A stretch of DNA of 37,499 nucleotides, from NCBI GenBank assembly GCA_015494645.1, contig WGAU01000030.1:1-37499 (forward strand), read 5' to 3'. The notes beneath the pieces were generated by a model. It was given only the letters and a program-made list of their open reading frames with translations, made no database searches and was not told where the DNA came from. Shown here in pieces: positions 1,013-17,081 of this stretch (position 1 is its first letter; each line of letters starts with the position of its first letter). Origin of the DNA: Aquificota bacterium. GTDB taxonomy: Bacteria; Thermosulfidibacterota; Thermosulfidibacteria; Thermosulfidibacterales; Thermosulfidibacteraceae. The position numbers and the translations under genes are program-made.

Positions 1013-1018
1013 TTAAGA

Positions 1019-1321
1019 CTACACCTGCATGCGCATTATCTCCTGATAAGCCTCAATGGCCTTGTTTCTCACCTCCATAAGCATCCTCAACGACACATCT
1101 GCCTTTTGAAGGGTAATCATCACCTTCTGTATATCCTGCTCTTTACCGGTGGAAAGAGCTTTCAGAGCCTCCTCGGCTTCCAACTGCATCCTGTTTACTT
1201 CTGCCACACTTTCTTTGAGGACTTCTGCAAAAGACTTCCCAGATACATTTTCCTTTTTGGGCTTCTGAGAAGCCGTCTGCTCCGCTGTCTTGCGGTATAT
1301 CTCAGAAACCCTGTTGTTCAT
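1019..1321 (-). CDS. fliE: Flagellar hook-basal body complex protein FliE
   Basis: 100 aa. The size and sequence fit FliE, and it sits in flgB-flgC-fliE-fliF order. Confidence 0.85.
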   Translation of the reverse strand: MNNRVSEIYRKTAEQTASQKPKKENVSGKSFAEVLKESVAEVNRMQLEAEEALKALSTGKEQDIQKVMITLQKADVSLRMLMEVRNKAIEAYQEIMRMQV

Positions 1322-1340
1322 AAAGCATCACCTCCCCTAA

Positions 1341-1796
1341 TTAAGCCCTCCCAATCTCCAATGTCTTCAATACCATATCCTTGGCAGAATTGAAAGCAGT
1401 AACATTGGCTTCAAAGCTTCTTGAAGCGGAAAGCAAATTTACCATCTCCTCAACCACATCTACATTGGGATATGTAACATAACCATCCTCATCGGCATCG
1501 GGGTGATAGGGGTCGTAAACCTTCCTGAAAGGCTTATTATCCTCTATTATTTCCAAAACCTTGACACCTTCCGACTCGGAACTTCTAAAGATCATTCTCC
1601 TCAGATAATCCCCGAAAGATTCAGGTTCCTTCTCCACACTCACAGGCATGAAAACCACATCTTTTCTGCGATAGGGTCCCCCTTCAGGGGTCCTTGTGGT
1701 CTCAGCATTGGCCAGATTGGAAGATATAACATTCATTCTCACCCTTTGAGCAGACATCCCAGAGGCGGCTATCTTAAAAACCGAGAAGAAGGTCAT
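1341..1796 (-). CDS. flgC: Flagellar basal-body rod protein FlgC
   Basis: 151 aa. The N-terminal motif MSAQRVRMNVISSNLANAETTRT is the conserved rod-protein N-terminus. Confidence 0.9.
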   Translation of the reverse strand: MTFFSVFKIAASGMSAQRVRMNVISSNLANAETTRTPEGGPYRRKDVVFMPVSVEKEPESFGDYLRRMIFRSSESEGVKVLEIIEDNKPFRKVYDPYHPDADEDGYVTYPNVDVVEEMVNLLSASRSFEANVTAFNSAKDMVLKTLEIGRA

Positions 1797-1802
1797 GGCT
1801 CA

Positions 1803-2213
1803 CTACCTCCCTGTAATAGCGTATTTGAGCTTCCCAATCTGCATGGAATAGGCCTGAGCTATGGCGTTGTATTTAAGCTGATTCTCCGCAAGCAAAGCCA
1901 TCTCCTTATCAATATCCACCGAATTCTCATCGTTTCTCACTGGAAACATCACCCTATCAACCCTGCCTTTCACATCCTCCAGCGTAGCAGGAGCAGACGG
2001 TATGTGCATGGGATGGGTCACGTACAGAGGCAGCTCATCCGTCCCATAGACCACATCCTGAAGCTCCTTTTCAAAGCTAAACCTTTTGGCCTTGTACCCT
2101 GGGGTATCGGCATTGGCTATATTGGCAGTTATATAGGCATGCCTTTTCCTCAAAAGCTCCATGGATCTGCCGGCCACATCCAACGCCATCCTGTGGTAAA
2201 TAGCATCTATCAT
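1803..2213 (-). CDS. flgB: Flagellar basal-body rod protein FlgB
   Basis: 136 aa. The ANIANADTPGYKA motif is present, and a GGAGGTGA SD precedes the ATG. Confidence 0.9.
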   Translation of the reverse strand: MIDAIYHRMALDVAGRSMELLRKRHAYITANIANADTPGYKAKRFSFEKELQDVVYGTDELPLYVTHPMHIPSAPATLEDVKGRVDRVMFPVRNDENSVDIDKEMALLAENQLKYNAIAQAYSMQIGKLKYAITGR

Positions 2214-2256
2214 GGCTCACCTCCCCAACAGGGGAGTTAGCAAAATCTTTGCCATA

Positions 2257-3117
2257 CTACTTGGAGCTTTCCGCACTGTTTCCCGCAGGCCTGTAGGGAA
2301 CAGGTATATACTGAACAGAAGATTTGGCACTCATTGGCTGCTCGTAAAGATCCATAAGAGCGTAGATCTCCTCAGGCATATCCGTGCTTACCTTTATGCC
2401 AAGCTTTTCTAAATCATCCTTCATAAGAGGATAATCATGGGTCCATTTGCCCTGAGACAAAATCTCAGCCACCTCTTCCGCCCTTTTCTCCTCCCACCCC
2501 TTATGCATCAGTATCTCCTTAACCGTCTGCCTCATCTGCTCAAGAGCCTTCTTTGAAACATCGGCAAGTATCAGGGTGTTATCGTCTATTTCCTCAACAG
2601 GCTTCTTCTCCAATACAGAAACAATGGACGCTGCAGGCATCTGGCCGATCTGGGGATCCACCGGACCAAGCACAGCATTCTCATCCATAACTACCTCATC
2701 AGCCGCAAGGGCTATGAGGGTCCCACCGGACATGGCAAAGTGAGGAACAAAAACTGTTACCTTTGCAGGATGCTTCATCAGAGCATGGGCAATCTGCTTC
2801 GCGGCAAGAACCAAGCCACCGGGAGTATGTATGATAAAATCAATGGGCACATCCTTAGGGGTCATTCTGATAGCCCTTAAAACGCTTTCCGAATCTTCCA
2901 TGTCTATAAACTTCATAAAAGGAATACCCAAAAGGCTCCTTGACTCCTGACGGTGTATCATAGTTATAACCCGGGAGCCTCTGTTTTTCTCTATCTTTCT
3001 CATAATCTTCAATCTTGCCGCCTCAAGCATCCTCTGACGCATCAGGGGCATAAAGGAGAGGAGTATGAGAAACAGCCAGAAAATATCAAACACATTGATA
3101 TGGGGCATGTTCTGCAT
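2257..3117 (-). CDS. ClpP-fold serine protease of the SDH/S49-like family, with an N-terminal TM helix
   Basis: Motifs IIHTPGGLV and SGGTLIALAADEVVMDENAVLGPVDPQ match the serine dehydrogenase proteinase family. I prefer the start MQNMPH at 3117 because AAGGAGGT lies 7 nt upstream. The track's TTG start at 3177 would overlap the divergent gene. Confidence 0.6.
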   Translation of the reverse strand: MQNMPHINVFDIFWLFLILLSFMPLMRQRMLEAARLKIMRKIEKNRGSRVITMIHRQESRSLLGIPFMKFIDMEDSESVLRAIRMTPKDVPIDFIIHTPGGLVLAAKQIAHALMKHPAKVTVFVPHFAMSGGTLIALAADEVVMDENAVLGPVDPQIGQMPAASIVSVLEKKPVEEIDDNTLILADVSKKALEQMRQTVKEILMHKGWEEKRAEEVAEILSQGKWTHDYPLMKDDLEKLGIKVSTDMPEEIYALMDLYEQPMSAKSSVQYIPVPYRPAGNSAESSK

Positions 3118-3194
3118 GGAAACTACCTCCTTTTCTATTTTTGGACTTAAATATATATTGCAAAGCAACAGCCTCAATCCTAAAAATTATCACC

Positions 3195-4496
3195 ATGAGG
3201 ATAGCTTTTTACACAATAGGCTGCAAGCTCAACCAGTTTGAAACAGAATTTATGAAGGAGCAGTTTGAGGAGGCAGGCTGGGAAACAGTTCCTTTCAAAG
3301 AAAAAGCAGACGTTTACATCGTTAACACATGCACGGTAACAGGACAGGCAGACTCAAAATCCCGCCAGACCATAAGACAAGCCCTTAAAAGAAATCCAAA
3401 TGCCCTTGTGGTTGCCGTGGGATGCTACTCCCAAGTGGCCAAAGAAGAGCTTCTCAAGACAGGCGCCTCACTGGTGCTTGGAAATCCTGAAAAGGGAAAG
3501 ATAGTAGAACTTGTGGAACAAGCCTTGAAAGAACAAAATCTCCCCAGAGTGCATGTTTCCAACATAAACAACAGCTTCTTTCCCATGACCATAGAGAATT
3601 TTTCCGGGCACTCCCGTGCCTTTATCAAAGTACAGGACGGATGCAACAGAAGATGCCCCTACTGCATAGTCTGGAAAGCAAGAGGACCTTCCAGAAGCGC
3701 TCCCCTTGAATTGGTAATCAAAGAGGCCCAGAAACTCGCCGACGCTGGATTTGAAGAGATCGTTCTAACGGGAACCCACTTAGGATGTTACGGTGAGGAA
3801 AAGGGCTTGGATCTTGTGGATCTACTTGAAAGACTCGTTGAGATTGATTCCCTGAAAAAAATCAGACTGTCCTCCCTTGAACCAACGGAAATCACTCCGC
3901 AGCTTATAGAGTTCATGAAAGAAAACAGTAAAATAGCCCGCCACCTGCACATACCTTTACAGAGCGCAAGCAACAGAATACTCAGGCTCATGAACAGACC
4001 CTACACAAAAGAGGAATTTGAAGATCTCGTAATGAAGCTTGCTGAAGCCTTGCCCGATGTGGGCATAGGAGTAGATGTTATAGTGGGCTTTCCCACAGAG
4101 GAAGAGGAGGATTTTGAAGAAACCTACAGGCTTATAGAAAAGCTGCCCATATACTACATGCACATTTTTCCTTATTCTCCACGGCCAAACACACCTGCGG
4201 CTTACATGAGACCTCAGGTCAGGCCAGACATAAAGAGAAGAAGATGGGAAATTATGAACCAGCTAAAAGATGCAAAAAAGAAATACTTTATAGAAAGATT
4301 TATAGGCAAAGAGCTTGAAGGGGTGATAGAAAACAGGCCCGCAAGTGAAAAGGGATACTGGAGTGCCCTCACAGAAAACTATATTCCTCTCGTAGTAAAA
4401 GGCCAGTTTCCCCAGTTAGCAGGTAAAGTGAAAAGGTTCAAGCTAATCCAAAGATTGGATCACCGAGCAGAAGCGTTACTTCTAACTTGGAGATAG
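3195..4496 (+). CDS. Radical SAM methylthiotransferase of the MiaB/MtaB/RimO family (MtaB-like)
   Basis: N-terminus MRIAFYTIGCKLNQFETEF..NTCTVTG (MTTase domain). It has a CxxxCxxC radical SAM core (GCNRRCPYC) and a C-terminal TRAM-like tail. I prefer the conserved N-terminal ATG at 3195 over the track's TTG at 3141. Confidence 0.8.
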   Translation: MRIAFYTIGCKLNQFETEFMKEQFEEAGWETVPFKEKADVYIVNTCTVTGQADSKSRQTIRQALKRNPNALVVAVGCYSQVAKEELLKTGASLVLGNPEKGKIVELVEQALKEQNLPRVHVSNINNSFFPMTIENFSGHSRAFIKVQDGCNRRCPYCIVWKARGPSRSAPLELVIKEAQKLADAGFEEIVLTGTHLGCYGEEKGLDLVDLLERLVEIDSLKKIRLSSLEPTEITPQLIEFMKENSKIARHLHIPLQSASNRILRLMNRPYTKEEFEDLVMKLAEALPDVGIGVDVIVGFPTEEEEDFEETYRLIEKLPIYYMHIFPYSPRPNTPAAYMRPQVRPDIKRRRWEIMNQLKDAKKKYFIERFIGKELEGVIENRPASEKGYWSALTENYIPLVVKGQFPQLAGKVKRFKLIQRLDHRAEALLLTWR

Positions 4497-7109
4497 CTCC
4501 TCCATTACTTTAGCCTGCGCCGCTGCCAAGCGGGCACCAAGTATCCTGTAAGGCGAACAGCTTACATAATCCACACCGATTTTATGGAAGAATCTGACCG
4601 ACTGGGGATGTCCTCCATGCTCCCCACACACACCCACCTTCAACTGGTGATTGGTAGCCTTCCCAAGCTCCACGGCCATCTTGACAAGCTTTCCCACGCC
4701 AAGTTCATCTATCTTTACAAATGGGTCTTCCGGTAGAAGCCCTTTTTCAACGTAAACGGGAACGAACTTGGCAGCATCATCCCTGGATATTCCGTAGGTT
4801 GTCTGAGTAAGGTCGTTGGTCCCTATAGAGAAGAAGTCTGCCTCCCTTGCTATCTGATCCGCAGTCAGTGCAGCTCTGGGAAGTTCTATCATAGTCCCCA
4901 CTTTGTAGTTAACAAATACCTGACGCTCCTGCATAACTTTGTTTGCCACCTGAGTAATGAGATCCCTGAGCAGCCTCATTTCCCTCACGCTGAATATCAG
5001 AGGAACCATTATCTCCGGATAAACCTCGCATCCCCCCTCTTTAAGGTCACAGGCAGCCTCTATAATAGCTCTGGTCTGCATCTCGTATATTTCAGGGTAG
5101 AGAATTCCAAGCCTTGCACCTCTCAATCCCAACATGGGATTAACTTCTGAAAGCTGGCGCATCCTCTCCTTTATCTTAGAAACGGGAATGCCCCTTTCCT
5201 GTGAGAAGTTTAACATTTCTTCCTCAGTCTTGGGCAAAAACTCATGCAGCGGCGGATCAAGCAGTCTAATAGTCACGGGTAAACCTTCCATCTCCCTGAA
5301 TATTCCTTTGAAATCCTCCCTTTGAAGAGGAAGGAGCTCTTCCAAAACCTCCCTCCTCTTCTCACTGCTTTCCGCAAAGATCATGTCCCGCACGATGTTG
5401 ATCCTGTCCTTTTCAAAGAACATGTGTTCTGTCCTGCAAAGGCCCACTCCCTCTGCTCCCAGCTCCTTAGCTATTCTTGCATGTTCAGGAGTGTCTACAT
5501 TGGCTCTAATCCTAAGAGTCCTTATCCTATCTACCCACTCCATCAGCTTTCTAAAATGCTCCGACGGCTTGGCTTGAACAAGCCTCACCTTACCTAAGTA
5601 AACTTCACCTGTGGTGCCATCTATGGTGATCCACTCACCCTCCTTCACCTCTACGCCATTAACCCTAATGACACCCTCCTTTTCATCCACATCAAGCTCA
5701 CCGCATCCCACGACACAGGGCTTACCCATACCCCTTGCCACCACCGCAGCATGTGAAGTTACCCCTCCCCTTGAAGTAAGTATTCCCTCAGCAACATTCA
5801 TACCACCTACATCTTCAGGAGAGGTCTCGGGTCGGACCAGTATGACCTTGTCTCCAGCTTCGGCCATTTCCTCAGCCTTTGAAGAGGAAAGCGCTACCTT
5901 CCCCACGGCAGCTCCCGGTGAGGCTGGAAGCCCTTTGGTTAAGAGGCACTTCACTTCATCGGGATCCACCATTGGATGGAGAAGTTGATCCAGCTTTCCC
6001 GGATCCACCCTCAAGACAGCAGTTGCCCTGTCAATGATACCCTCCTCCACCATATCCACAGCTATCCTGATGGCAGCAGCTATAGTTCTTTTCCCCGCTC
6101 TCGTTTGAAGAATGTAAAGTTTCCCCTTCTCAATAGTGAACTCTATATCCTGCATATCCTTGTAGTGCCTTTCCAATCTATCTGCGTACTTTTCAAGCTG
6201 AGCGTATATCTCGGGCATGATTTCTTTTAATTTTTCCACAGGATCCGGGGTTCTTATCCCAGCAACCACGTCCTCTCCTTGAGCGTTGATCAAAAACTCC
6301 CCAAACAGTCCCTTCTCCCCTGTAGCCGGATTCCTTGTAAAGCAAACACCCGTTCCCGAATCATCTCCCATGTTGCCGAAAACCATGGTCTGAACATTGC
6401 AGGCCGTTCCCCAATCATCGGGAATGTTGTGTATCCTCCTGTAGATTCGAGCCCTTTCGTTGTTCCAAGACCTAAAAACCGCTTCAACAGCACAGAAAAG
6501 CTGCTCCCAAGGATCCTGGGGAAACTCAGCCTTATACTTCTTGTAGATGTGAAAGTAGCGCTCAACCAGCTCCTCAAGGTCGTCATCGGTCAGCTCAATA
6601 TCGGTCCCTTTGCCCTTTTCTCTCTTTAGCTTCTCAATGGCATCTTCAAACTCCTCATGGGGAATCCCAAGGACCACATCTCCAAACATCTGAATGAGCC
6701 TCCTGTAAGAATCATAGGCAAAACGCCTGTTGGACGTTGATTCCGCTAAGGCCTCCACCGTTTCACTGTTCAGTCCCACATTCAGTATAGTATCCATCAT
6801 ACCGGGCATACTTACCTTGGCACCGGATCTTACTGAGAAAAGAAGTGGATTATCTTTGGAACCAAAACCTTTACCCACAAGCCTCTCAACATACCTGACC
6901 CCCTCTTCTATTTGACACCTCAAATTCCCGGAAAGCTCACCCATCCTCAGGTACTCCAAACACGCCTCCGTGGATACGGTAAACCCCGGAGGAACCGGGA
7001 TATTAAGCCTCGTCATCTCGTGAAGATTGGCTCCCTTGCCTCCAAGCAGATCCCTCATGGAGGCATCACCTTCAGCGTAACCATTTCCAAAAAAATACAC
7101 GTACTTCAT
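4482..7109 (-). CDS. ppdK: Pyruvate, phosphate dikinase
   Basis: 875 aa. The N-terminus MKYVYFFGNG...GGKGANLHEMTRLNIPVPPGFTVSTEA is recognisable, with a PEP-utilising His domain and a C-terminal TIM barrel. A GGAGGT SD is present. Confidence 0.95.
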   Translation of the reverse strand: MKYVYFFGNGYAEGDASMRDLLGGKGANLHEMTRLNIPVPPGFTVSTEACLEYLRMGELSGNLRCQIEEGVRYVERLVGKGFGSKDNPLLFSVRSGAKVSMPGMMDTILNVGLNSETVEALAESTSNRRFAYDSYRRLIQMFGDVVLGIPHEEFEDAIEKLKREKGKGTDIELTDDDLEELVERYFHIYKKYKAEFPQDPWEQLFCAVEAVFRSWNNERARIYRRIHNIPDDWGTACNVQTMVFGNMGDDSGTGVCFTRNPATGEKGLFGEFLINAQGEDVVAGIRTPDPVEKLKEIMPEIYAQLEKYADRLERHYKDMQDIEFTIEKGKLYILQTRAGKRTIAAAIRIAVDMVEEGIIDRATAVLRVDPGKLDQLLHPMVDPDEVKCLLTKGLPASPGAAVGKVALSSSKAEEMAEAGDKVILVRPETSPEDVGGMNVAEGILTSRGGVTSHAAVVARGMGKPCVVGCGELDVDEKEGVIRVNGVEVKEGEWITIDGTTGEVYLGKVRLVQAKPSEHFRKLMEWVDRIRTLRIRANVDTPEHARIAKELGAEGVGLCRTEHMFFEKDRINIVRDMIFAESSEKRREVLEELLPLQREDFKGIFREMEGLPVTIRLLDPPLHEFLPKTEEEMLNFSQERGIPVSKIKERMRQLSEVNPMLGLRGARLGILYPEIYEMQTRAIIEAACDLKEGGCEVYPEIMVPLIFSVREMRLLRDLITQVANKVMQERQVFVNYKVGTMIELPRAALTADQIAREADFFSIGTNDLTQTTYGISRDDAAKFVPVYVEKGLLPEDPFVKIDELGVGKLVKMAVELGKATNHQLKVGVCGEHGGHPQSVRFFHKIGVDYVSCSPYRILGARLAAAQAKVMEELSPS

Positions 7110-7162
7110 GATAAACCTCCAACCGAAAAGTTACCTTCAAGGATAATTATAAACCGGTAGGT

Positions 7163-8188
7163 TTAAGAATTCACGGAAACCGTATCTCTACCCGTGGATT
7201 TCGCCCGGTAAAGCGCTTCGTCAGCAGCTCTAACGAGATCGTCAGAGCTCATACCCTCTACATACTCGGATATGCCAAAGCTGGCGCTGACCCCAAGCCC
7301 CAGGGATTTAATTTTCTTCCTTATACGATTTGCAAGAACCAATGCACCTTTCGCATCGGTATCGGGAAGAACTATCAGAAATTCGTCTCCCCCATACCTT
7401 CCACAGTAATCCACCTTCCTTACAGAAGATCTTATAGCCTCAGCCACTTCCTTCAAAACCTTATCTCCAAAAATATGACCCTTCTCATCATTGAGCTTTT
7501 TGAAGTTGTCCAGATCTATCATAATTACAGAAAAGGTACTACTGTATCTATTTGCCCTCTCAATCTCTAAAGAGATAATTTCAAAGATCTTGCCCCTTGA
7601 ATAAAGCCCAGTTAGATAGTCAAACTCAGCCTTCGCCCTCAAAAGCTTCTCGTACTTTTTCCACATGCCAAAGAAAGCGAAGTAGAGGAAAGACGTAAGT
7701 ATCAAAGCCATAACCAACTGTACAAAATAAAAGGAAACCTGTGGCTGATGAATAAAACCAGATTTGAATGAGAAAAGGATACTAACCACCAAAACGTAAA
7801 AACTCGCAGCAATTCCTCCCCATGGGCTTGTGATCATAGCCACCCCGAGAACGTAAACGGGCAACCAGATGCTCATGGTCTTCTTTCCGTGAAACATCTG
7901 GTAGTACATGACAGCGGTTATGAGAAAAGTAACCGCAGCTACCCCAGCACCGATAACAAACCGTTCTTGTTTATCAACCACAAAGTAGCCCACTGCGAGA
8001 CATGCACAGACCAGAAATTCCAAAACAGCAAGGGGCTTGTATGTAAAAAGCAGATCGTAAACGGCAAGTATAAACTGCATTAGAGCAAGAGACAGGCACA
8101 GTATTTTCAGAAATCTCAATCTCAAGTTTTCAAAAGCTGCAGTCATTGCAATTTTCAAACAGATGTAATATTCTTTAGCTGAGGGCAT
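7163..8188 (-). CDS. Membrane-anchored GGDEF-domain diguanylate cyclase
   Basis: Several N-terminal TM helices precede a GGDEF domain (LTGLYSRG...DLDNFKKLNDEKGHIFGD...CGRYGGDEFLIVLPDTD). The start is uncertain: ATG at 8188 or 8146. The track's TTG at 8215 overlaps the divergent DUF59 gene. Confidence 0.8.
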   Translation of the reverse strand: MPSAKEYYICLKIAMTAAFENLRLRFLKILCLSLALMQFILAVYDLLFTYKPLAVLEFLVCACLAVGYFVVDKQERFVIGAGVAAVTFLITAVMYYQMFHGKKTMSIWLPVYVLGVAMITSPWGGIAASFYVLVVSILFSFKSGFIHQPQVSFYFVQLVMALILTSFLYFAFFGMWKKYEKLLRAKAEFDYLTGLYSRGKIFEIISLEIERANRYSSTFSVIMIDLDNFKKLNDEKGHIFGDKVLKEVAEAIRSSVRKVDYCGRYGGDEFLIVLPDTDAKGALVLANRIRKKIKSLGLGVSASFGISEYVEGMSSDDLVRAADEALYRAKSTGRDTVSVNS

Positions 8189-8191
8189 AAT

Positions 8192-8470
8192 ATGAAAAAT
8201 TTGCCAGAGCCTCAAGACATAGCGAAAATTTTATCAGAAATAAAAGATCCCGAAACAGGGTTTAATCTTCTTGACCTTGGTATTGTAAAGAACATTGACT
8301 ACATACCAGAAGATAAAAAGGCCATTGTATATGTAGATTTTAAAAGAAGAACCCCAAGCTGCGCTGCCTGTGCTCCCATAGCATGGCTTGTACAGAAAAG
8401 GATACTTGACGAATTGAGCAAAAGGCTGATGGAGTATCCTGACATAAAAAAGGTTGAAGTGAAAGAGTAG
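8192..8470 (+). CDS. DUF59/MIP18-family Fe-S assembly protein
   Basis: 92 aa. The motif ILSEIKDPETGFNLLDLGIVKNI matches the FeS_assembly_P family. A GAGGG SD lies 6 nt upstream. Confidence 0.75.
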   Translation: MKNLPEPQDIAKILSEIKDPETGFNLLDLGIVKNIDYIPEDKKAIVYVDFKRRTPSCAACAPIAWLVQKRILDELSKRLMEYPDIKKVEVKE

Positions 8471-8472
8471 CC

Positions 8473-9435
8473 TCACAAAAGTTTTTCAAGGTCCTGCCTC
8501 TCAGGGAGCTTCAATCCCAACTTTTCAATGCACTGCCTCACATCTTCGGGCAGCGGCGAAAACACCGAGATTCTCTCGCTTCTGACGGGGTGGTCAAAAT
8601 CCAGATAGGCAGCGTGAAGCGCCTGTCTATGTATGAGATCAAGCCCTTTCCTACCGTATATAGCGTCTCCCAAGACAGGACAGCCTAAATGGTGCATGTG
8701 AACCCTGATCTGGTGAGTTCTCCCGGTGTAGATCCTCACCAAAAGCACACTAAATCTGTCGCTGGAATCAAAAACCACATACTTTGTAATGGCCTCTCTC
8801 CCCCCCTCAACCACCGCCATTTTTTTCCTGTCCACAGGATGCCTCCCAATGGGAGCATCCACCGTTCCCGAAAGAAAAGGCGGCTTCCTCCAACACACCG
8901 TAACGTAAATCTTTTTTACCTTCTTGTCTTGAAACATCCGGCTCATGATCATATGAGCCTCTTCCGTTTTCGCCACTACCATAAGGCCTGAGGTGTCCTT
9001 ATCAAGTCTGTGAACTATCCCAGGCCGTTCTCTACCTCCCAAAGGGGAGAGAACTGGAAAACGGGAGATCAACACGTTAGCCAAGGTATCCTGAGCATGT
9101 CCAGCCGCAGGATGCACCGGAATTCCAGCAGGCTTCTCAATAACAGCAAGATGCTCATCTTCAAAGTACACTTTTATATCCAGATCCCACGGCACCAGCT
9201 CCAAAGGCTCTGGTTCTGGAATAAACACCTCTACCTCAGCTCCAGCAAAAACTTTCACCCCAGCCTTTCTGGGAATTCCACCGTTTAAAAGAATATGTCC
9301 TTCGTCCAAAAGCTTTTTTATTCTGCTACGGGAAAGATCAAGGTGGGTTTCAAGGAATCTGTCAAGGCGAGTGCCAGCGAATTCATCGGAAACCCTTAGA
9401 ACCTTCCGTATACCTCTGTTCCGCAGGAGGGACAT
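8473..9435 (-). CDS. rluD: RluA/RluD-family 23S rRNA pseudouridine synthase
   Basis: An S4 domain is followed by the catalytic HRLDKDTSGLMVVAKT motif. Confidence 0.85.
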   Translation of the reverse strand: MSLLRNRGIRKVLRVSDEFAGTRLDRFLETHLDLSRSRIKKLLDEGHILLNGGIPRKAGVKVFAGAEVEVFIPEPEPLELVPWDLDIKVYFEDEHLAVIEKPAGIPVHPAAGHAQDTLANVLISRFPVLSPLGGRERPGIVHRLDKDTSGLMVVAKTEEAHMIMSRMFQDKKVKKIYVTVCWRKPPFLSGTVDAPIGRHPVDRKKMAVVEGGREAITKYVVFDSSDRFSVLLVRIYTGRTHQIRVHMHHLGCPVLGDAIYGRKGLDLIHRQALHAAYLDFDHPVRSERISVFSPLPEDVRQCIEKLGLKLPERQDLEKLL

Positions 9436-10397
9436 CTGCTCCCTTCAAGGTAAGAGAAGGTCTCAAAAAAGCCTGAACGCTTAATAAGCAACCTACCACA
9501 GGACGGGCAATAGGTGCTGTTGAGCCTGTCATCAGGCACATTTCCCACGTAAACGAACTTCATCCCTTTGGATTCCGCCAAGAATTTGGCACGGATCAGG
9601 GTATCAACAGGAGTTGGGGGCAAGCTTGTCAACTCGTAGTGTGGGTAAAACCTTGTGAAGTGCAGGGGAATATCCAAGCCAACGCTGGCAACAAAGTCGG
9701 TCAGCTCTTCAAGCTCCTCTAAGGAATCATTGTATCCAGGAATGATCAAGTTGGTCACCTCCACATGAACGCCAGATTCATAGGCAAGCTCAATCGTTTC
9801 CATGGTTGCTCTTAAAGAGCCTCCCCTGCAAACATCCCTGTAAAACTCCTCCCTTATGGATTTAAGATCAATATTCATGGCATCCACATAGGGAATCAGA
9901 TCCTCAAGAGGCTTACGGTTTATCTGGCCATTGGTAACAAGAACAATAGGCAATCCTTTAGGCTTAGCTACCTTTGCCACATCCAATAAGTACTCGTACC
10001 ATATGAGAGGCTCGGTGTAGGTAAAACACACACCTTTAGAAGCGTATCTTTTGGCAACCTCCACAAGCTCTTCTGGAGATACGTATTTTGTAGGACAGGA
10101 GTACTGAGAGATTGAGTAGTTTTGACAGTGAAGACAACCAAGATTGCATCCATTGCAAGCTACAGAGATGATATAACTTCCTGGATAAAAGTGGTACAGA
10201 GGTTTTTTCTCTATAGGATCGTTGCTTATGGTAACAAGCTCACCATAGCCTGTGGCAACAAGCTTTCCTCCTTGGTTGCTTCTGATTCTGCAGAAACCAG
10301 AATTGCCATCAGCTATAACACATTCCCTCGGGCATAGCCTACATCTGACCGTGGACTTGTCCAAGGGCTCCCAGTACTTGGCCTCAGGCTTCATCAC
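9396..10397 (-). CDS. amrS: AmmeMemoRadiSam system radical SAM enzyme
   Basis: It has [10 protein letters not shown] radical SAM cysteines and an N-terminal [18 protein letters not shown] Cys cluster, giving a PflA-like fold. It is adjacent to an AMMECR1 gene. Confidence 0.8.
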
Positions 10398-10909
10398 TTG
10401 TATCTGTTCACCGTGAACCTATAGACCTTTATAGGCTCCCCGGGTGAGATACCCGCCTTAGCCATGGCTATAGCCAACTGTTGCTCAACCGTTTCCACCC
10501 CTTCCAGATCGGGCAGAAGCAATCCCCTCCTGAACCCGGACTCCACAATGACACCGTACTTTTTGGGGTCAAGCTGAGAAAGATCAGTAACAGGCTCAGG
10601 AGTGGAAAGAACATCCACAGATATATCCAGCTCGCCAAGCTCATCTTCCCTCACCGGAGGGAACCTCGGATCCTCTGTAGCTGCAGCAATGGCGTTTCTT
10701 ATAATTTCCTGAGCCACATTTTCACAGACGGGAAGAAAAGTGCCTATGCATCCCCTCAGCTCTCCCCTTTTTTTAAGTGAAACAAAGGTTCCTGCTCTCT
10801 GCTTCATTTCCGGGATCATAAGCTCCTCTGGAGGGGGATCTATCACCCTTCCGCTCCTTATGTACTCTTCAATGGCCTTTCTTGCCAATTGAACCAAAGG
10901 ATGAGCCAT
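10394..10909 (-). CDS. amrA: AMMECR1-domain protein
   Basis: 171 aa. The motif [10 protein letters not shown]...EDPRFPPV is the AMMECR1 signature. Its stop overlaps the amrS start by 4 nt. Confidence 0.85.
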
Positions 10910-10911
10910 GG

Positions 10912-11889
10912 CTAATACTCCCTCTCCACAAGGAACTCGGCTATACCTATAAGATACTCCTTCTCCTTGGAGTTATCAAAGCCCTTTATAGCCTCAACTG
11001 CTCTCATCCCATGTTCCTTTACCCTCTCTCTGGCTTTTTCCACACCGTTGTACTTGAGGATCACTTCCCTCACATATCCAAAGTCATCATAGGATATAGA
11101 TTCGGCAAGAAGAAGATCCCTGATGTGCCTTTTCTCCTCGGACGTTGCATCCCTAAGAGCATAGATCAAAGGAAGTGTCACCTTGCCTTCTCTGAAGTCA
11201 TTTCCCACAGGCTTTCCCGTCTTTCCAGGATCTCCTACAATATCCAAAATATCATCAGAAATCTGGAAAGCGTAGCCTATTTCTCTGCCGTACCTCCTCA
11301 GAGCCTCCCTGTTACCATTGGAAGCAAGCACAGCCCCCACCTCACAGGAAGCAGCTATCAACGCTGCCGTCTTGCCGTAGATAATAGCGTAGTAATCCTC
11401 TTCAGAAGTATTTATATCAAAGCTTTTCACAAGCTGGTGTATTTCTCCTTCTGCAAGACTTACACACGCCTTAGAAATTATAGCCAATGCTTCCTCCGGC
11501 AGATACTCCGTCATGAGCCAGAAAGATCGGGCAAATAGGAAATCCCCTACAAGAATAGAAGCCTGATTGCCCCAGATCTTTCTGGCGGCAAGCCTGCCCC
11601 TTCTTCTGTCCGACTCATCCACCACATCGTCATGGAGCAAAGTAGCGGTGTGTATATACTCCACAACTGCCCCTGCAACGCAGGCTGCATACCCGTTGTA
11701 CCCGCAGAGCCTTGCCGAAAGAAGCGTCAACATGGGCCTGAATCGCTTACCTCCAGATTCAAGGATGTACCGGGAAAGTTCTGGGATCACTTTTATGGCA
11801 GAGTGCAGATTTTCATTTAGTATTATCTCTACCTGCTTTAGCTCCTCAGCTATATATTCAGCTATCTCTCCGATAACGGACCTTTTCAT
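10912..11889 (-). CDS. ispB: Octaprenyl/long-chain polyprenyl diphosphate synthase
   Basis: Both aspartate motifs are present: [15 protein letters not shown] and FQISDDILD. Confidence 0.85.
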
Positions 11890-11935: not shown

Positions 11936-12667
11936 ATGAACGAGCCGGCCATCTTTCTTGATAGGGTGAGTGTAAATATAGGAAGCAGAACCATCATTGA
12001 AGATGTTTCTCTCTCTATAAAGAGAGGAGAGTTCTGGGGCGTTATCGGCCCCAACGGTGGAGGAAAGACAACTTTGTTAAGAACCATTATTGGGATGGTT
12101 AAGCCTAATAACGGAAAAGTTGAAATTTTTGGAATGAAACCTCAGCAGGCGGTCAAAAAAGGCTTAGTGGGGTACCTACCCCAGCATATAAAGGGAATAA
12201 TCCCTTTAAGCGCATTGGATTTTGTGAGAACAGCAGGCAATCCGAAGTTTGCCGAAGAAGCCCTTGAAACCGTTGGGCTGAAGGACAAAAAGGAGTTACC
12301 CTTTGAAAAACTCTCAGGTGGGGAGAAACAAAGGACGCTAATAGCCGCAGTTCTTTCAAGGAACCCAAAGGTACTACTTCTTGATGAACCCAACACAGGT
12401 ATAGACGTTGTAGCACAGGACAGCTTTTATAATTTACTCAGAAACCTTAAGAATCAGGGGATAACCATTGTTATGGTCTCCCACGATGTGGGAGTTGTTA
12501 CTCAGTTCGTTGACAAGGTGGCGTGCTTGAACAAAAAGCTAAAATACTCAGGAGATCCAAGAAGCGCTTTAGACTGTAATCTGCTAGAAGAATTGTACGG
12601 ATCAAAGGTTGAAGTTCTTGTGCATCATCCGGAGTGTACGGGATGCCATATATACCGGAAATCATAA
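11936..12667 (+). CDS. znuC: ABC transporter ATP-binding protein, Zn/Mn-type (ZnuC-like)
   Basis: Walker A (GPNGGGKTT), the signature LSGGEKQR and Walker B (LLLDEP) are all present. Confidence 0.8.
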
Positions 12668-13431
12668 TCCCGCCTGTTCTCTGTGCTTTCATTTTAGGAA
12701 TCGCCATTTCTATTTACTCCTACTTTGTAGTGGTGAAGAGATGGGCTTTTCTGAGTGTTGGGGTATCCCATGCAGCCTTTGGAGGAGTAGCTCTTGGGCT
12801 ACTTATGGGCATTTCACCACAGGTATCTTCAGCCATCTTTGCCATTGCCGCCGCAATAATAATTTCCTTTATAAAGAGACAAGAGAGTTTAAACGAAGAC
12901 GCATCCATCGGTGTGATCTTCTCCACGTTCATGGCAATTGGAGTGATACTTTTCTCCATGGCACAGGAGTATACTTACAATGTGTTTACCTATCTCTTTG
13001 GAAACATGCTTGCCGTTGGCTGGAAAGATTTCATATGGGCTGCTTTGGTAGCAACTGTAAGCATTGCATTTTTTGTAGTCTTTAAAAAGGAACTTATCCT
13101 CATAAGCATAGATGAGGAATTTGCCTATACTTGTGGTGTACCGTCCACAGCTCTTTATTACTCCCTTGTAATACTATTTACCTTCACCGTGGTGGTCTCC
13201 ATCAAACTTTTGGGGGTAATCCTCGTGTCATCTTTGACGGTGATTCCAGCGTCTGTAGGGCTTTTCTTTTCAAGAAGGCTGAATACCATCCTCGCCATTT
13301 CCGTAGTATCCTGTATGTTTATCATGGCTGTAGGATTGATGCTTTCCTTCTTCTTCAATCTACCACCTGGAGCCACCACTGCTGCTGTGGGAGGAATGCT
13401 ATTTTTCGGCTTTCTTCCTTTCAAGAAGTAG
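12634..13431 (+). CDS. znuB: ABC-3 family permease (ZnuB-like)
   Basis: 265 aa and polytopic. It overlaps znuC by 34 nt. No substrate-binding gene is adjacent. Confidence 0.75.
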
Positions 13432-14685
13432 TGCTTCAAATTTGGGATGGGTAAGCTTTTTAATAATCATATAGTTAGAAAGGTTTAGGTATTTTTCTTT
13501 TTTGCGCTTTAATACAAGCCAAAACCGATCATCCTTTATTTCTCCGACGGACTCTATCTTTTTAGCTATTCTACCAGTGTAAAGAGAAGCACCGTATATT
13601 TTTTCGTCAAGTATATACACCGGTATATCCATCATCATTCCTTTAGCCAAAGGAGCAAAGGATCTTTTGCGAGAATACCACGGGAAAAGAACAAGCACCG
13701 CCGCTGTATATATGACAAACACAAAAACGGACACTTTCTTTATCAAGTCTTCATTATAAAAAACCTCGGAAAATATAACAGCCCACGCCGGAAAGACGCA
13801 AAGTATGTAATGGGGTAATTTTGACTTGGAAAATGAGAAAAAAACCGTGGGAAACAGTATCCAAAGAAAGATGAATCCCCAAAAGGTTTTATCCTCAAAA
13901 AAAAGAGAAAGAATGTTTTTAAATCTGAAAAACAAAATAAATGTCCATGGGGAAAGGCCTACCAAGGTTACCAGAGCAAAATAGTAAAAAGGTTGCTCCC
14001 TTTTGAAAACTCCAGTGGTATATCTCAACACATTCTCCTTCCAGAAAAAGTTGTAACAGTAGCCAGGAGTTTTCGCTTCAAGAAGAAGAAATACTGGAAC
14101 CACAATGATCAGAAACAAAATCATGCCCTTGAAGATATCTTTTAGAGATACTTTCCCTATCCAAACAAGGGGCAAAGAAACAGCAGCCGGTATAACCACC
14201 CCCACAGGCCCCTTGGTCAAAAAGGCCAAAGAGGCAAAGAAAGATGCCCATAAGATTTTGTTCTTCCACACAAAGTAAAGGGTGAGAAATATGAAAAGGG
14301 ATAGAAGCATCTCCATACGGGCAATCCTTGCGTAGGCAAAGGTTATGAGAAAGGACAGGAAATAAAAAGCGGCCAGCTCACCCTGCCACAGAAACAACAC
14401 AAAAGCTAACGCCAAAGCAGAAAAGGCCGAAATAATTCTTAAAGAAAGCTCCCACGAACCAAAAATCTTGTAGCTGACAGCCGCAAGCCAGTAGTAAAGC
14501 GGAGGCTTTTCATATCTGACTCTGCCGTTTATCCTCGGTGGAAGCCAGCTTCCCTCTTCAACGATCTCCCTAACAATCTCGCCGTTACGGGCTTCATCAG
14601 GCTCCACAAGGGGATAACCAGCAAGGTTGACAAAAAGAGGCAGAATAAACAGCAGAAAGAGACAGGTAAAGAGGCTATGCCTCAT
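13399..14685 (-). CDS. GT39/ArnT-family (PMT-like) membrane glycosyltransferase
   Basis: The first periplasmic loop has the [14 protein letters not shown] motif (DEAR..EI, ArnT/PMT family). It has 10 or more TM helices. The ATG at 14685 (MRHSLF) is preferred over the track's TTG at 14703. Confidence 0.7.
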
Positions 14686-15010
14686 CAGATTCGTTGAGGG
14701 CAACTATCCTTTTAAGGATTATAAAGTCCTGAAGAGGAATCTCCTTAAATTCAACGGCGAAGCCATCCTCTGCCTTTCTGACCACCTCTGCTTTGAGGGT
14801 AACCTCCTCCACCACATTGTCCGATTCCATCAGGTGAAGCTTCAACTCGCAAAGCGCTCCCAAAGGCGGTTTTTTTTCACACTCTATGAAGGCTCCCTTG
14901 ACACTTATGTCTCTGGTTCTTAGATTTGTAGCCTGAAAATCCCGTCCCCTCACGGAAGCCTTAACCCTGAACTTCACCCTCTTGAACCTTCTTCTCTCCC
15001 TTCCCGTCAT
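14675..15010 (-). CDS. Stand-alone PilZ-domain protein, a c-di-GMP receptor candidate
   Basis: 111 aa. The RRFKR...DISVKGAF motifs fit the RxxxR and D/NxSxxG signatures. Its ATG lies 3 nt after the cheR stop. Confidence 0.75.
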
Positions 15011-15013
15011 GGC

Positions 15014-15799
15014 TCACACCCTCTTATAAACTATGACACCATCCATAACCTCTCTTTTGTAAGGAACCACCAGTCCTAAAAGAGTTTCTGTCTTGGATAT
15101 GAAAAGATAGCCTCCAGACTTGTGTATCTGCGCCAGATTATTGAGAGCCTCTGTACGCTTTTTTGTGTCAAAATATATGAGAAGATTCCTACAAAAAATA
15201 AAATCAAAAATACCCAAACTCTTTAAAAAGGACACATCAAAAACATTGCCCACATAATATTTAACCTTCAGCTTCAGCTCGGTTTTTACTTTATAAGCCC
15301 CGTTGTACTCCTCAAAGTACTTCCTCAAAAGAGCAGGAGGAACCCTCATCACAGACCGGCGGGAGTATATTCCCTTCCTCGCTATATCAATGGCCCTTTT
15401 GTCAACATCCACTCCCACAACGTCAAACCTAAAGGTGCTCCCCATAGACTCTAAAAGCTCCATAACTATACTCAAAGGCTCCTCACCAGTGGAACAGGGA
15501 ATGCTCAAGATCCTTGCTTTCAAAAGCCTTTCCCTTTTGATAAGTTTTGGCAGAAGGGAGATATGCTCTTTTTCTCTGAAAAAGTAGGTTTCGTTAACCG
15601 TTATCACTGATATGAAATCTTCAAAAAAGCGTTGATCTTTAAGTCTTCTCAGAAGATCCTGTTCTGTAAGGTTGTTCCTTAGCAGGAAAAGATCCACCTT
15701 AGAAGCTAATAACCTCATGTTAGACTTATCTGCCACTATGCCCAACCTGTGATATATCATATCAGAAACCGTTCTTAAGGTTTCGGTGCTTACTGCCAT
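15014..15799 (-). CDS. cheR: CheR-type protein-glutamate O-methyltransferase
   Basis: 261 aa. It has an N-terminal helical CheR_N region and a SAM-binding domain. An AAGGAAAGG SD is present. Confidence 0.8.
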
Positions 15800-15995
15800 A
15801 GCCCCTTTCCTTCAATCTCTCTCTTAACGCTTTTTGCCATCTCTTAGCCCATTCAAAACGCTTAGACAATAGCAAAAACGCCAAAAGGAAAAAGGGAATC
15901 CCTGGTAAAATGGGTAGAATTGCCCCTATTACTCCCAAACCAAAAAGGACTAAGGCTACAACAATTAGAAGAATAGCTTCAAGAGACCTTTTCAA
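15762..15995 (-). CDS. Small DUF454 (YbaN-like) inner-membrane protein
   Basis: [27 protein letters not shown] matches the YbaN core. The start is TTG, with a GAGGGAAAGGA SD upstream. It overlaps both neighbours. Confidence 0.5.
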
Positions 15996-16890
15996 CGGTC
16001 ATCCTTTCCCTCAGCCTACAGAAGGCACAGGGCGGATACGTGGTAGGATACCCACAGGAAGGACACTCCACAAGCTTCGGTTTCTCTTCATCCACAAAGA
16101 GCTTGTCTTTGACCTTTAAAAACTCCCTGTAAAACCTTATCTTCGTTCCGGGAGAGTTGTACTCAATGGTATTCAAGGCCCTTTTGTAAACAAGAGTGGT
16201 TGCACCCTTAGAATAAGGACACTCATCCGAAAGGAAATTTATTCCTGTAATAAAGGCGTAAACAGCCGTCTCTCTTTCGGTAAGCTCACAAAGTGGTTTA
16301 ACTTTTCTCACAAACTTTCCTTCCTTCGGCAAAACCGGACCCTGTCTGGCCAAATACCCAATACGCCATCCCAAAAGATTGGAAAACAGCACAGCCGTTT
16401 CGTCGTTAAGATTGTGCCCTGTGGCCAACACGTCAAAGCCATTCTCATAGGCGTATTTGTTCATTATATAGCGTTTAACCATACCACAGGCAGCACAAAT
16501 GGTTCTGGTTTCTCTTTGTTTAACATCGTCTATGGAAAAGCCGTATTCTTTCTGAAGATCAAAGACCTCAAGGGGATAACCCCTCTCCTCAGCAAAGCTT
16601 TCCACTATGCCCCTTGCCTTCTGGAAGTGGTTGTTCTCCATTATACCCAAGTCTATGAACAGAGCCGTAACGTTGTAGCCAAGCCTCTTGAGAACGTCCC
16701 ACAGAACCAAGCTGTCTTTGCCACCGGACACAGCCACAAGAACCTTAGAATCCTTGTCAAACATTCTGTACTTCCTCACCACCTCTTTGACTCGCTTGAG
16801 GCAAAATTCCACAATATGTTCATGGCAAAGAGCAATGCCGAAGGACCTGACCCTTATAACAGCTTCCTTTTTACAGAGCTTACACCTCAT
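15979..16890 (-). CDS. ttuA: TtuA/NcsA-type tRNA 2-thiolation PP-loop ATPase (Fe-S dependent)
   Basis: It has an N-terminal Zn finger (CKLCKK...CHEH), the PP-loop SGGKDS, cluster cysteines (CAACG, ECPYS) and a C-terminal Zn finger (CPSCG...CAFC). Confidence 0.8.
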
Positions 16891-17081
16891 CCCCGCGACA
16901 CCACCTCGTGAATTTTTATCTCATCACCATCCATAAGCCATTTATCTTCAGTTATGGGCTTTCCATCCTTAAGCACAACCACATCTTCAGGATTTATGTG
17001 CAGATTGAGCAACAGCCTTTCCAGCTTCACCCTCCTCTCATCAACTTCAAAGATCCTATCCCTAAAAATCACTTTTATCAT
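16887..17081 (-). CDS. ThiS/MoaD-fold small protein (TtuB-like sulfur-carrier candidate) ending in -SRG
   Basis: 64 aa. The pattern MIKVIF...VVLKDGKPI...[13 protein letters not shown] fits the ThiS profile. It has a strong GGTGAGGAGG SD. Its TGA overlaps the ttuA ATG (ATGA). Confidence 0.65.

Follow-up and report, generated by a model that had tools for sequence, protein, structure and literature searches.

The question raised by this locus is whether an isolated cheR gene, followed by genes for a stand-alone PilZ protein and a membrane glycosyltransferase, forms a c-di-GMP-responsive unit with either of them and, if so, which genes belong to that unit. The DNA analysed (hereafter the window) is a single 37.5-kb contig from the metagenome-assembled genome of a heat-loving vent bacterium. 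All three ORFs reported in the first-pass annotation were recovered on the minus strand at the same coordinates, namely cheR (15014..15799; Pfam CheR PF01739, E 1.8e-42; 261 aa), pilZ (14675..15010; Pfam PilZ PF07238, E 7.9e-16; 111 aa) and an ArnT-like GT-C glycosyltransferase gene (13399..14685; NCBIfam ArnT, E 9e-35; 428 aa from the ATG). The longest ORF of the glycosyltransferase begins at TTG 14703, and the ATG at 14685, from which the overlap of 11 nt with pilZ is counted, agrees with the starts of its orthologues. The cheR stop codon is a TGA, followed by GCC (3 nt) and then the pilZ ATG at 15010, and a Shine-Dalgarno-like stretch (AGAGGG) ahead of pilZ lies within the 3' end of cheR. 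Read-through of the in-frame cheR-TGA-GCC-pilZ arrangement was considered and ruled out; the frames differ in L001 and in the contig resembling Thermosulfidibacter takaii (T. takaii-like). A further minus-strand gene, not mentioned in the first-pass annotation, encodes a DUF454/YbaN-like membrane protein (15762..15995; Pfam DUF454, E 1.8e-10; 77 aa) with two hydrophobic segments by hydropathy, and its 3' end overlaps the start of cheR by 38 nt.

The close spacing of cheR, pilZ and the glycosyltransferase gene had been read as a sign of coupling, and that reading does not survive a window-wide control. Same-strand neighbours lie ≤5 nt apart or overlap in 23 of 37 pairs, and from Rex (24989) to the glycosyltransferase (13399) 16 functionally unrelated genes follow one another with every gap ≤3 nt. 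Junctions of 3 nt and 11 nt are ordinary here, and because the genome is packed alike everywhere in the window, the spacing of these three genes is no evidence of coupling. A scan of the window for promoters and terminators gave signal no better than chance.

The predicted product of cheR is a two-domain protein-glutamate O-methyltransferase with intact catalytic residues. An exact-sequence look-up of this protein found no record. Its entire sequence can be aligned with Salmonella CheR (1AF7/1BC5; E 3e-27 for 1AF7) and with Pseudomonas aeruginosa CheR1 (5XLY_A, E 2.6e-24), and the PF01739 match covers residues 69-241. Invariant in the CheR alignment are R75 (FFRE) and Y209 (IYFD), the equivalents of the catalytic Salmonella residues R98 and Y235, together with STGEEP, D131 and CRN, and the SAM-binding motifs are kept. 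Pfam CheR_N (PF03705) found no match in the window CheR, whereas relatives 40-45% identical to it do match; by phmmer, residues 2-246 align with residues 6-257 of Salmonella CheR. K34 aligns with Salmonella R53, and the other basic residues of the receptor-binding helix are not retained.

The adjacent gene is predicted to encode a stand-alone c-di-GMP-binding protein. Its likeness to MapZ, as first proposed, was tied to the presence of c-di-GMP-binding residues, and on careful alignment both motifs are there, complete and invariant in the family: R7, R8 and R11 of RxxxR, and D34, S36 and G39 of DxSxxG (the family motif being [D/N]hSxxG). R7 and R11 align with R9 and R13 of MapZ, and D34-I35-S36-x-x-G39 with D35-V36-S37..G40. 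An AF2 model (pLDDT 88.3) shows a six-strand β-barrel, the strands falling within residues 14-89, followed by a single C-terminal helix at residues 93-107 with no second helix. The best Foldseek matches of this model are all PilZ domains, those of Alg44 and BcsA scoring level with MapZ (E about 1e-4), so that the fold does not discriminate between them. Searched against the PDB as a single sequence, the window PilZ matched nothing up to E 1, and MapZ was reached by the family profile only. That profile, built with MapZ left out, found MapZ/PA4608 (5XLY_B) as its best match over the full length (E 5.7e-8), the other solved PilZ proteins following at E 0.005 to 0.55; hhalign of the family with MapZ gave 93% probability, and the pairwise comparison with the window protein about 26% identity (E 1e-4). 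At the level of sequence, then, the identities of the genes, the c-di-GMP motifs, the catalytic residues of CheR and the position of MapZ as the closest solved relative of this PilZ are shown.

DUF454, cheR and pilZ genes occur together in every Thermosulfidibacter-like lineage member examined, the comparison covering pieces of about 20 kb from relatives and, for the T. takaii-like locus, the annotation of a 6-kb Logan contig. The DUF454 gene lies upstream of cheR in the T. takaii-like, L007, L115/116 and L088 contigs, and in L001, L009, L117 and L092 it is unannotated but was detected by tblastn. CheR identity within the lineage (61-73%) is level with that of housekeeping neighbours, CheR and PilZ together ranging over 58-73%, and synteny spans SAMP2 through the ABC-3 transporter; because the whole neighbourhood is syntenic, conservation within the lineage is weak evidence. 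The outgroup L088 also keeps DUF454-cheR-pilZ, with CheR 44% and PilZ 47% identical, and there the gene after pilZ is a convergent UbiD gene, with no glycosyltransferase. In a JGI metagenome contig (Ga0256914_1000663; L096), a homologue of the window PilZ (29-36% identity, with LRRLLSLN against LRRLVELN of MapZ) is found in the order MCP-CheW-CheA-PilZ-CheR-CheB-CBS-CheX-CheY-Hpt. Outside the lineage PilZ adjoins cheR at 2 of about 21 PilZ loci, and by a rough estimate a random gene would have cheR as its immediate neighbour at ~0.1-0.2% per locus. Beyond the lineage L094 and L095, both among the closest PilZ homologues, do not adjoin cheR, and the nearest CheR homologues beyond the DUF454-cheR-pilZ group (L004-L006 and L089) have no PilZ alongside. 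In the che locus L004, one PilZ-like regex match was seen at a distance of ~6 kb from cheR. Gene order thus establishes, as far as genomic comparison reaches, that the pair has been kept across a divergence of roughly 44-47% identity in a changed context and that PilZ-CheR adjacency recurs in a che operon, and the functional unit it predicts is DUF454-cheR-pilZ, without the glycosyltransferase.

As regards GT39 (PMT family), the glycosyltransferase gives a borderline match to Pfam PMT_2 (27.1 bits, cutoff 26.1), its T. takaii-like orthologue is annotated with PF02366 and PF13231, and it contains about 10-11 hydrophobic segments. Against the NCBIfam ArnT equivalog it scores 120 bits (cutoff 567; E 9e-35) over profile positions 6-334 of 539, and ArnT (5EZM, E 1e-35) is its sole relative by sequence with a solved structure, matched over residues 6-308 in the transmembrane region. 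It is the least conserved gene of the neighbourhood (46-51% within the lineage). Its closest homologues outside the lineage follow MlaD-MlaA-MlaC (L010, L012) or precede OEP-HlyD (L011), with neither PilZ nor CheR found beside these three, and among 80 homologue loci from species-representative genomes PilZ was present in 2, both from the window's own lineage. Matches to a PilZ-motif regex near homologues outside the lineage were spurious ORFs or long unrelated proteins, and where L115 seems to lack the glycosyltransferase, a run of N marks a gap in the scaffold and no true loss. The earlier suggestion that the glycosyltransferase belongs to the unit, or is the substrate of CheR, finds no footing in these comparisons: L088 has none, the closest outside homologues have no pilZ or cheR, and the junctions are ordinary. 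We judge the ArnT-like protein to be an envelope enzyme outside the functional unit, a mere neighbour whose adjacency appears to be lineage-specific.

The genomic setting bears on what CheR might methylate. The membrane GGDEF cyclase of the first-pass annotation was confirmed (7163..8215 on the minus strand, ATG at 8188; PF00990, E 1.9e-41); its RYGGDEF motif is intact, an RKVD I-site (RxxD) lies five residues upstream and there are about five hydrophobic segments. Since a GGDEF cyclase is present in the window, the organism makes c-di-GMP. The gene is 5 kb from the cheR-pilZ pair, and this location is the entire connection seen between them. The window also holds fliE, flgC and flgB (flagellar basal body and rod; 1019..2213, minus strand; Pfam FliE, Flg_bb_rod and Flg_bbr_C), which had been overlooked, and the organism is therefore flagellated. 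Pfam scans of all large ORFs and six-frame HMM searches found no CheA, CheW, CheB, CheY or MCP in the window, in agreement with the first-pass annotation, and MCP, CheA and CheB were likewise absent from about 60 kb of lineage DNA, which covers ~3% of a genome of roughly 1.8 Mb. Among the best 120 matches to the CheA from the nearest che operon type there was none from Thermosulfidibacter, and a search for literature on Thermosulfidibacter chemotaxis or flagella yielded nothing usable. The nearest other CheRs sit within che operons, and related genomes have their che genes dispersed, as with HEAT-CheR-CheY standing alone in L089. Because flagellar genes are present in the window and the nearest other CheRs lie in che operons, the default expectation is that CheR acts on an MCP whose gene lies elsewhere in the genome.

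Our preferred explanation, to which we assign a probability of roughly 0.58, is that the locus encodes a MapZ-type c-di-GMP control of CheR in the form of DUF454-cheR-pilZ, the neighbouring glycosyltransferase being unrelated. We consider that CheR and PilZ probably work like CheR1 and MapZ because the pairing recurs in other genomes. When c-di-GMP rises, through the GGDEF cyclase 5 kb away, for example, or through others, ligand-bound PilZ would bind the co-translated CheR via its conserved basic C-terminal helix (L93...K100-R101...N106). CheR in the complex would show altered methylation of chemoreceptors encoded elsewhere, most likely inhibition, and in this way the level of the second messenger would be linked to adaptation in flagellar chemotaxis. 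In this scheme we infer the physical binding of PilZ to CheR, inhibition as its direction and MCPs as the substrate.

It could be argued that cheR and pilZ are merely coincidental neighbours, independent genes packed together in a compact genome and co-inherited in one lineage, the PilZ target being elsewhere. The frequency of same-strand pairs ≤5 nt apart, the run of 16 unrelated genes lying head to tail, the full synteny of the lineage from SAMP2 to the ABC-3 transporter, the L094 and L095 homologues of PilZ that lie away from cheR and the close CheR homologues without PilZ would all be expected under such an arrangement. We nevertheless regard coincidence as unlikely, since the pair is retained in L088 despite a new downstream context, an independent PilZ-CheR adjacency exists in the L096 che operon (the two together being the 2 of about 21 outside loci, set against the rough chance estimate) and MapZ is the closest solved relative by profile. 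A different kind of c-di-GMP control would follow if the lineage, flagellated as it is, had no MCP, CheA, CheW or CheB, so that DUF454-CheR-PilZ gated the methylation of a non-MCP protein (DUF454, the glycosyltransferase or another envelope protein). The isolation of cheR as the sole che gene in the window and the examined lineage contigs, the CheA search, the divergent CheR N-terminal domain that escapes Pfam CheR_N and the constant coupling of a membrane protein gene (DUF454) to cheR are consistent with an orphan module of this kind. However, the DNA seen amounts to ~3% of the genome and the CheA search to the best 120 matches, the organism is flagellated, che genes are dispersed in relatives (L089) and CheR keeps a basic residue where Salmonella CheR binds receptors. 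To our knowledge all characterized CheR enzymes methylate MCP-type receptors, and we consider an orphan module improbable.

The remaining explanation places the target of PilZ on its other side, such that c-di-GMP-bound PilZ activates the ArnT-like GT-C enzyme, much as polysaccharide synthases are switched on by the PilZ domains of BcsA and Alg44. The PilZ model is structurally as near to those two domains as to MapZ. The overlap of 11 nt, the adjacency of the two genes in all lineage members and the coincidence of that adjacency with a lineage-specific loss of the second MapZ helix (α2) would also fit control of the glycosyltransferase. Against this, CheR and PilZ occur in L088 without a glycosyltransferase, PilZ is found at 2 of the 80 homologue loci, both of the lineage, with the closest outside homologues lying by Mla or efflux genes, and the overlap is typical of the genome. 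BcsA and Alg8 are GT2 enzymes, we know of no GT-C enzyme that is controlled by PilZ, and we hold such control to be very improbable.

If MapZ-type control of CheR is indeed what the locus encodes, it is interesting to speculate on its distribution. MapZ-CheR1 has so far been a Pseudomonas paradigm, and here a MapZ-like PilZ has cheR as its neighbour in a thermophile lineage that branches deeply; its occurrence there and in a complete che operon on an unrelated metagenomic contig suggests an older origin and a wider spread of c-di-GMP control over receptor methylation than described. Natural CheR-PilZ pairs encoded side by side in thermophiles may also prove practical material for structural and biochemical studies. 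Should the window PilZ, lacking α2, still bind CheR, it would define a minimal CheR interface, and the ever-present DUF454 gene is a candidate for an additional partner. An orphan module, if true, would make this CheR the first to act on a protein other than an MCP.

Among known systems the nearest is MapZ-CheR1 of P. aeruginosa (PDB 5XLY, 5Y4R). The window PilZ is, like MapZ, a single-domain protein with RxxxR and DxSxxG, the C-terminal helix pattern L..(I/F)..L(R/K)R(L/I)V.LN is common to both and the partner in both is, judged by alignment, a canonical two-domain CheR. The window genes are adjacent, with a DUF454 gene ahead, whereas mapZ (PA4608) and cheR1 are presumably unlinked in PAO1. 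MapZ binds CheR1 chiefly via helix α1 (residues 92-106), in which R99 is essential and R100, N105, S96 and H97 as well as L92, I95, L101 and L104 make contacts (bioRxiv 10.1101/2020.02.11.943704). MapZ R99, R100 and N105 correspond to K100, R101 and N106 of the window PilZ, in which L93, F96, L99, I102 and L105 are conserved, but the essential arginine has become a lysine and S96/H97 are replaced by I97/I98. Helix α2 of MapZ (residues 109-121), which makes hydrophobic contacts to CheR1, is missing from the window protein, which stops five residues past N106, as do all lineage members; an α2-like extension is kept in PilZ of L088, L094, L095 and L096. Several of the α1 contact residues are core positions in any PilZ, and PilZ proteins in general carry the C-terminal helix and use it for many partners (bioRxiv 10.1101/814665). 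Sequence clustering predicted the MapZ cluster for proteobacteria only (bioRxiv 10.1101/2020.02.11.943704), to which the window host does not belong. Of the resemblance to MapZ-CheR1 proposed at the outset, the motifs, the match to a MapZ-free profile, the pair kept in L088 and PilZ-cheR in the L096 che operon speak in its favour, while the absence of α2 speaks against it.

The L096 operon shares with the window a homologous stand-alone PilZ immediately beside cheR. It differs in that PilZ immediately precedes CheR, with the other genes of a full che operon around them, and retains the α2-like extension, there is neither DUF454 nor a glycosyltransferase, and CheR is just 37% identical, in the catalytic domain. 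As in Alg44/BcsA systems, the window PilZ has the canonical fold and a glycosyltransferase next to its gene, but the Alg44 and BcsA domains are fused to or within GT2 synthase complexes and the window PilZ has an ArnT-like GT-C enzyme as its neighbour, in a link limited to one lineage and with a profile similarity that is much weaker (E 0.024 to 0.55). That enzyme itself resembles ArnT (GT83; lipid A 4-amino-4-deoxy-L-arabinose transferase; 5EZM) in a homologous transmembrane catalytic region, with PDE (EPDEARNGE), (E/Q)KPP, LTKGP and SKLPxY (SKSKLPHY) motifs that align with 5EZM. At 428 residues it is about 150 shorter than 5EZM (578), and the large periplasmic C-terminal domain of ArnT is therefore taken to be absent. 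Finally, Azospirillum Tlp1 and Azorhizobium Cbp1 illustrate another c-di-GMP route into chemotaxis through a PilZ domain; theirs is fused to the MCP, whereas the window PilZ is a separate protein encoded beside the methyltransferase.

On the minus strand of the window, which is a complete NCBI MAG contig of 37,499 bp, four genes lie head-to-tail, encoding a DUF454 membrane protein (15995..15762; 77 aa), CheR (15799..15014; 261 aa), a stand-alone PilZ protein (15010..14675; 111 aa) and a polytopic GT-C glycosyltransferase (14685..13399 from its ATG, the longest ORF starting from a TTG at 14703). The first-pass annotation had presented cheR, pilZ and the glycosyltransferase gene as a coupled trio; their placement was confirmed in the sequence, as were the 3 nt gap between cheR and pilZ (a TGA stop, then GCC, then the pilZ ATG, with a Shine–Dalgarno-like AGAGGG within the cheR 3' end) and the 11 nt overlap between pilZ and the ATG start of the glycosyltransferase gene. 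The membrane-bound GGDEF cyclase that it described is also present (7163..8215), its GGDEF motif intact and followed through to the I-site type RxxD. Two features absent from that annotation are the DUF454 gene, the 3' part of which overlaps the cheR start by 38 nt, and fliE, flgC and flgB (1019..2213), from which we conclude that the organism is flagellated.

Tight spacing was considered as a sign of cheR–pilZ coupling and rejected, as 23 of the 37 pairs of same-strand neighbours in the window are equally close (no more than 5 nt apart or overlapping), overlaps making up 19 of the 37 junctions. From Rex (24989) to the glycosyltransferase (13399), 16 functionally unrelated genes follow head-to-tail on the minus strand with every gap at most 3 nt, including those for a P-II protein, RpiB, SHMT, dCMP deaminase, NrdR, TrkH, CorC, agmatinase, a radical-SAM enzyme, TtuB and TtuA, and promoter and terminator scans gave results at chance level. 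Since such spacing is ordinary for the window, claims of coupling must rest on comparative data. Gene packing is extreme across the window and GC skew is strongly negative over the whole contig; the plus strand, otherwise almost empty, carries a 244 aa ORF without a Pfam match (36689..37423). The convergent 3' ends of an ABC-3 permease gene (12634..13431, plus strand) and the glycosyltransferase gene overlap by 33 nt (13399..13431), an arrangement that recurs in contig L001 and the T. takaii-like contig. Directly upstream of DUF454–cheR–pilZ (15979..17081, minus strand) are genes for TtuA, a tRNA 2-thiouridine synthetase with a PP-loop and a LIM zinc finger, and for a 64 aa SAMP2/TtuB-like ubiquitin-fold sulfur carrier, both in conserved synteny with it throughout the lineage.

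The block SAMP2/TtuB–TtuA–DUF454–CheR–PilZ–glycosyltransferase is found in all Thermosulfidibacter-like contigs compared (L001/L008, L002, L007, L009, T. takaii-like, L091, L092, L115/116 and L117/118), but the rest of the neighbourhood is likewise syntenic, so that conservation of the block there says little by itself. Within the lineage, conservation of CheR and PilZ (58–73% identity) is on a par with that of housekeeping neighbours (53–85%); in the closest named relative, Thermosulfidibacter takaii ABI70S6, CheR is 64% identical and PilZ 64% (BLAST local alignment). The next most similar CheRs (40–45%) lie in CheW–MCP–CheY–CheA–CheB–HEAT–CheR–CheY operons without PilZ, or in a HEAT–CheR–CheY fragment. 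The exception is CheR P0008 (44%) on contig L088, which is encoded in a DUF454–CheR–PilZ array followed by convergent UbiD, without the glycosyltransferase, and whose PilZ neighbour is 47% identical to that of the window. In a PilZ-centred metagenome scan (24 loci), the closest homologues besides these were in L094, between ACS/CODH–RACo genes and an oxidoreductase; in L095, after a giant ORF; and in the JGI metagenome contig L096 (Ga0256914_1000663, 1..10240), within a complete che operon, MCP–CheW–CheA–PilZ–CheR–CheB–CBS–CheX–CheY–Hpt. The last is a stand-alone, MapZ-like protein of 127 aa, encoded between cheA and cheR, with an LRRLLSLN helix and an alpha2-like tail. PilZ–CheR adjacency thus occurs in three settings (the lineage, L088 and L096), with the glycosyltransferase attached in one of the three. 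By our own rough estimate, a random gene has cheR as its immediate neighbour in about 0.1–0.2% of cases; in this informal comparison, adjacency at 2 of about 21 loci outside the lineage would be far above expectation.

All lineage members and the outgroup L088 (44% identity) carry the DUF454 gene upstream of cheR, always overlapping the cheR start; in several assemblies it is uncalled but was recovered by tblastn. Its product, a small, two-helix, YbaN-like membrane protein (elsewhere at L088 2..163, L007 9814..10038 and L115 2838..3101), may belong to the CheR–PilZ module as its third component.

Inclusion of the glycosyltransferase in this unit was not borne out: the pairs in L088 and L096 lack it, and a glycosyltransferase-centred scan of species-representative genomes (80 loci kept) placed CheR and PilZ beside a homologue at only two loci, both from this lineage. 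It is the least conserved of the genes within the lineage (46–51% identity). The protein is ArnT-like, its sole solved sequence relative being ArnT (5EZM; E 1e-35, the match covering the transmembrane region with catalytic motifs aligned), but unlike ArnT it lacks a large periplasmic domain, and it scores 120 bits against the NCBIfam ArnT model, whose equivalog cutoff is 567. The closest homologues outside the lineage (40–43% identity) directly follow the outer-membrane lipid asymmetry genes MlaD–MlaA–MlaC (L010 2288..5516; L012 4005..7356), which hints that the enzyme could modify an outer-membrane lipid, or lie between histidine kinase and OEP–HlyD efflux genes (L011). The best-supported reading is of an envelope enzyme merely abutting cheR–pilZ, its relatives being found with genes for outer-membrane lipid transport and for efflux.

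The full length of CheR can be aligned with both Salmonella CheR (1AF7/1BC5) and Pseudomonas aeruginosa CheR1 (5XLY_A). Catalytic R75 and Y209 are retained, as are the SAM-binding motifs, and K34 provides a basic residue at the position of Salmonella R53. Pfam CheR_N, which matches the 40–45% identical relatives, finds no match in the divergent N-terminal domain. Judged by these residues the enzyme is catalytically intact, and it is under purifying selection. That it is an orphan acting on a non-MCP substrate, which the first-pass annotation had raised for the case that the organism lacks canonical chemotaxis, would fit the lack of CheA, CheW, CheB, CheY and MCP genes in the 37.5 kb window, which we confirm, and of che genes other than cheR across the approximately 60 kb examined from the lineage. 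Among the best 120 matches to a CheA taken from the che operon type of greatest similarity, none was from Thermosulfidibacter, a result that excludes only CheA of that type. However, the flagellar genes and an intact, selected CheR argue for receptors encoded elsewhere, and related compact genomes have their che genes dispersed, as in L089, where a HEAT-repeat protein–CheR–CheY fragment (7151..9116) sits between transhydrogenase genes and MutS2, apart from any CheA or MCP. We therefore consider an orphan CheR, or one with a non-MCP substrate, improbable. In an Aquificota contig, L004, a protoglobin–PAS–GGDEF–EAL protein (9177..11687, minus strand) adjoins a che operon, and about 6 kb beyond is a 241 aa ORF (14867..15592, minus strand; called as 232 aa) with PilZ-like RxxxR...DxSxxG and no recorded Pfam match, through which this genome may likewise connect c-di-GMP to chemotaxis.

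For CheR and PilZ, the evidence best supports an arrangement of the MapZ type. Both c-di-GMP motifs were found in PilZ by alignment, RxxxR (R7, R11) and D-I-S-x-x-G (34–39), and the AF2 model (pLDDT 88) has a six-strand barrel and a single C-terminal helix (93–107). The T. takaii orthologue (P0126) carries the name 'orotate phosphoribosyltransferase' in both NCBI and UniRef, which looks like a mis-annotation because PilZ is its only Pfam domain. The single window PilZ sequence had no match in the PDB, but a family profile built without MapZ matched MapZ (PA4608) over the whole length (E 5.7e-8; PA0012 0.005, BcsA 0.024, Alg44 0.55), with 93% probability in hhalign; by Foldseek, MapZ was not separable from the Alg44 or BcsA PilZ domains. 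MapZ binds CheR1 through helices alpha1 (92–106) and alpha2 (109–121), alpha1 contributing R100 and N105 as well as the essential R99 (bioRxiv 10.1101/2020.02.11.943704). In the window protein, alpha1 is well conserved (L93, F96, L99, K100, R101, I102, V103, L105 and N106), although MapZ S96 and H97 are not kept; this is suggestive but not specific, because Galperin and Chou (bioRxiv 10.1101/814665) describe the basic helix at the C-terminus as a surface through which PilZ proteins interact in general. Unlike MapZ, the protein ends five residues past N106 and so lacks alpha2, an extension resembling which is present in the homologues outside the lineage (L088, L094, L095 and L096), and the essential R99 is replaced by K. 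The proposed partnership is favoured by the c-di-GMP motifs, the profile match and recurrent adjacency, and weakened by the missing alpha2 and the R99-to-K change.

Our working hypothesis is that c-di-GMP-loaded PilZ would bind co-expressed CheR via its C-terminal helix, and that receptor methylation would then be modulated, probably inhibited, tying c-di-GMP level to chemotactic adaptation of the flagellated cell; that PilZ binds CheR, that the effect is inhibitory and that MCPs are the substrate are all inferred. Of two alternative readings, a non-MCP substrate is judged improbable and control of the glycosyltransferase is contradicted. A cheR–pilZ gene pair was not described in the literature searched, coverage of which was incomplete. 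Control of CheR by c-di-GMP through a PilZ adaptor is already known from MapZ–CheR1. What is new is a probable MapZ-like instance outside the proteobacteria, an adjacent cheR–pilZ pair with a constant DUF454 partner, where elsewhere PilZ lies within a che operon, and a minimal PilZ without alpha2. We speak of the system as probably working in the manner of MapZ, but because alpha2 is missing and R99 is changed to K we do not class its PilZ protein as a MapZ orthologue.
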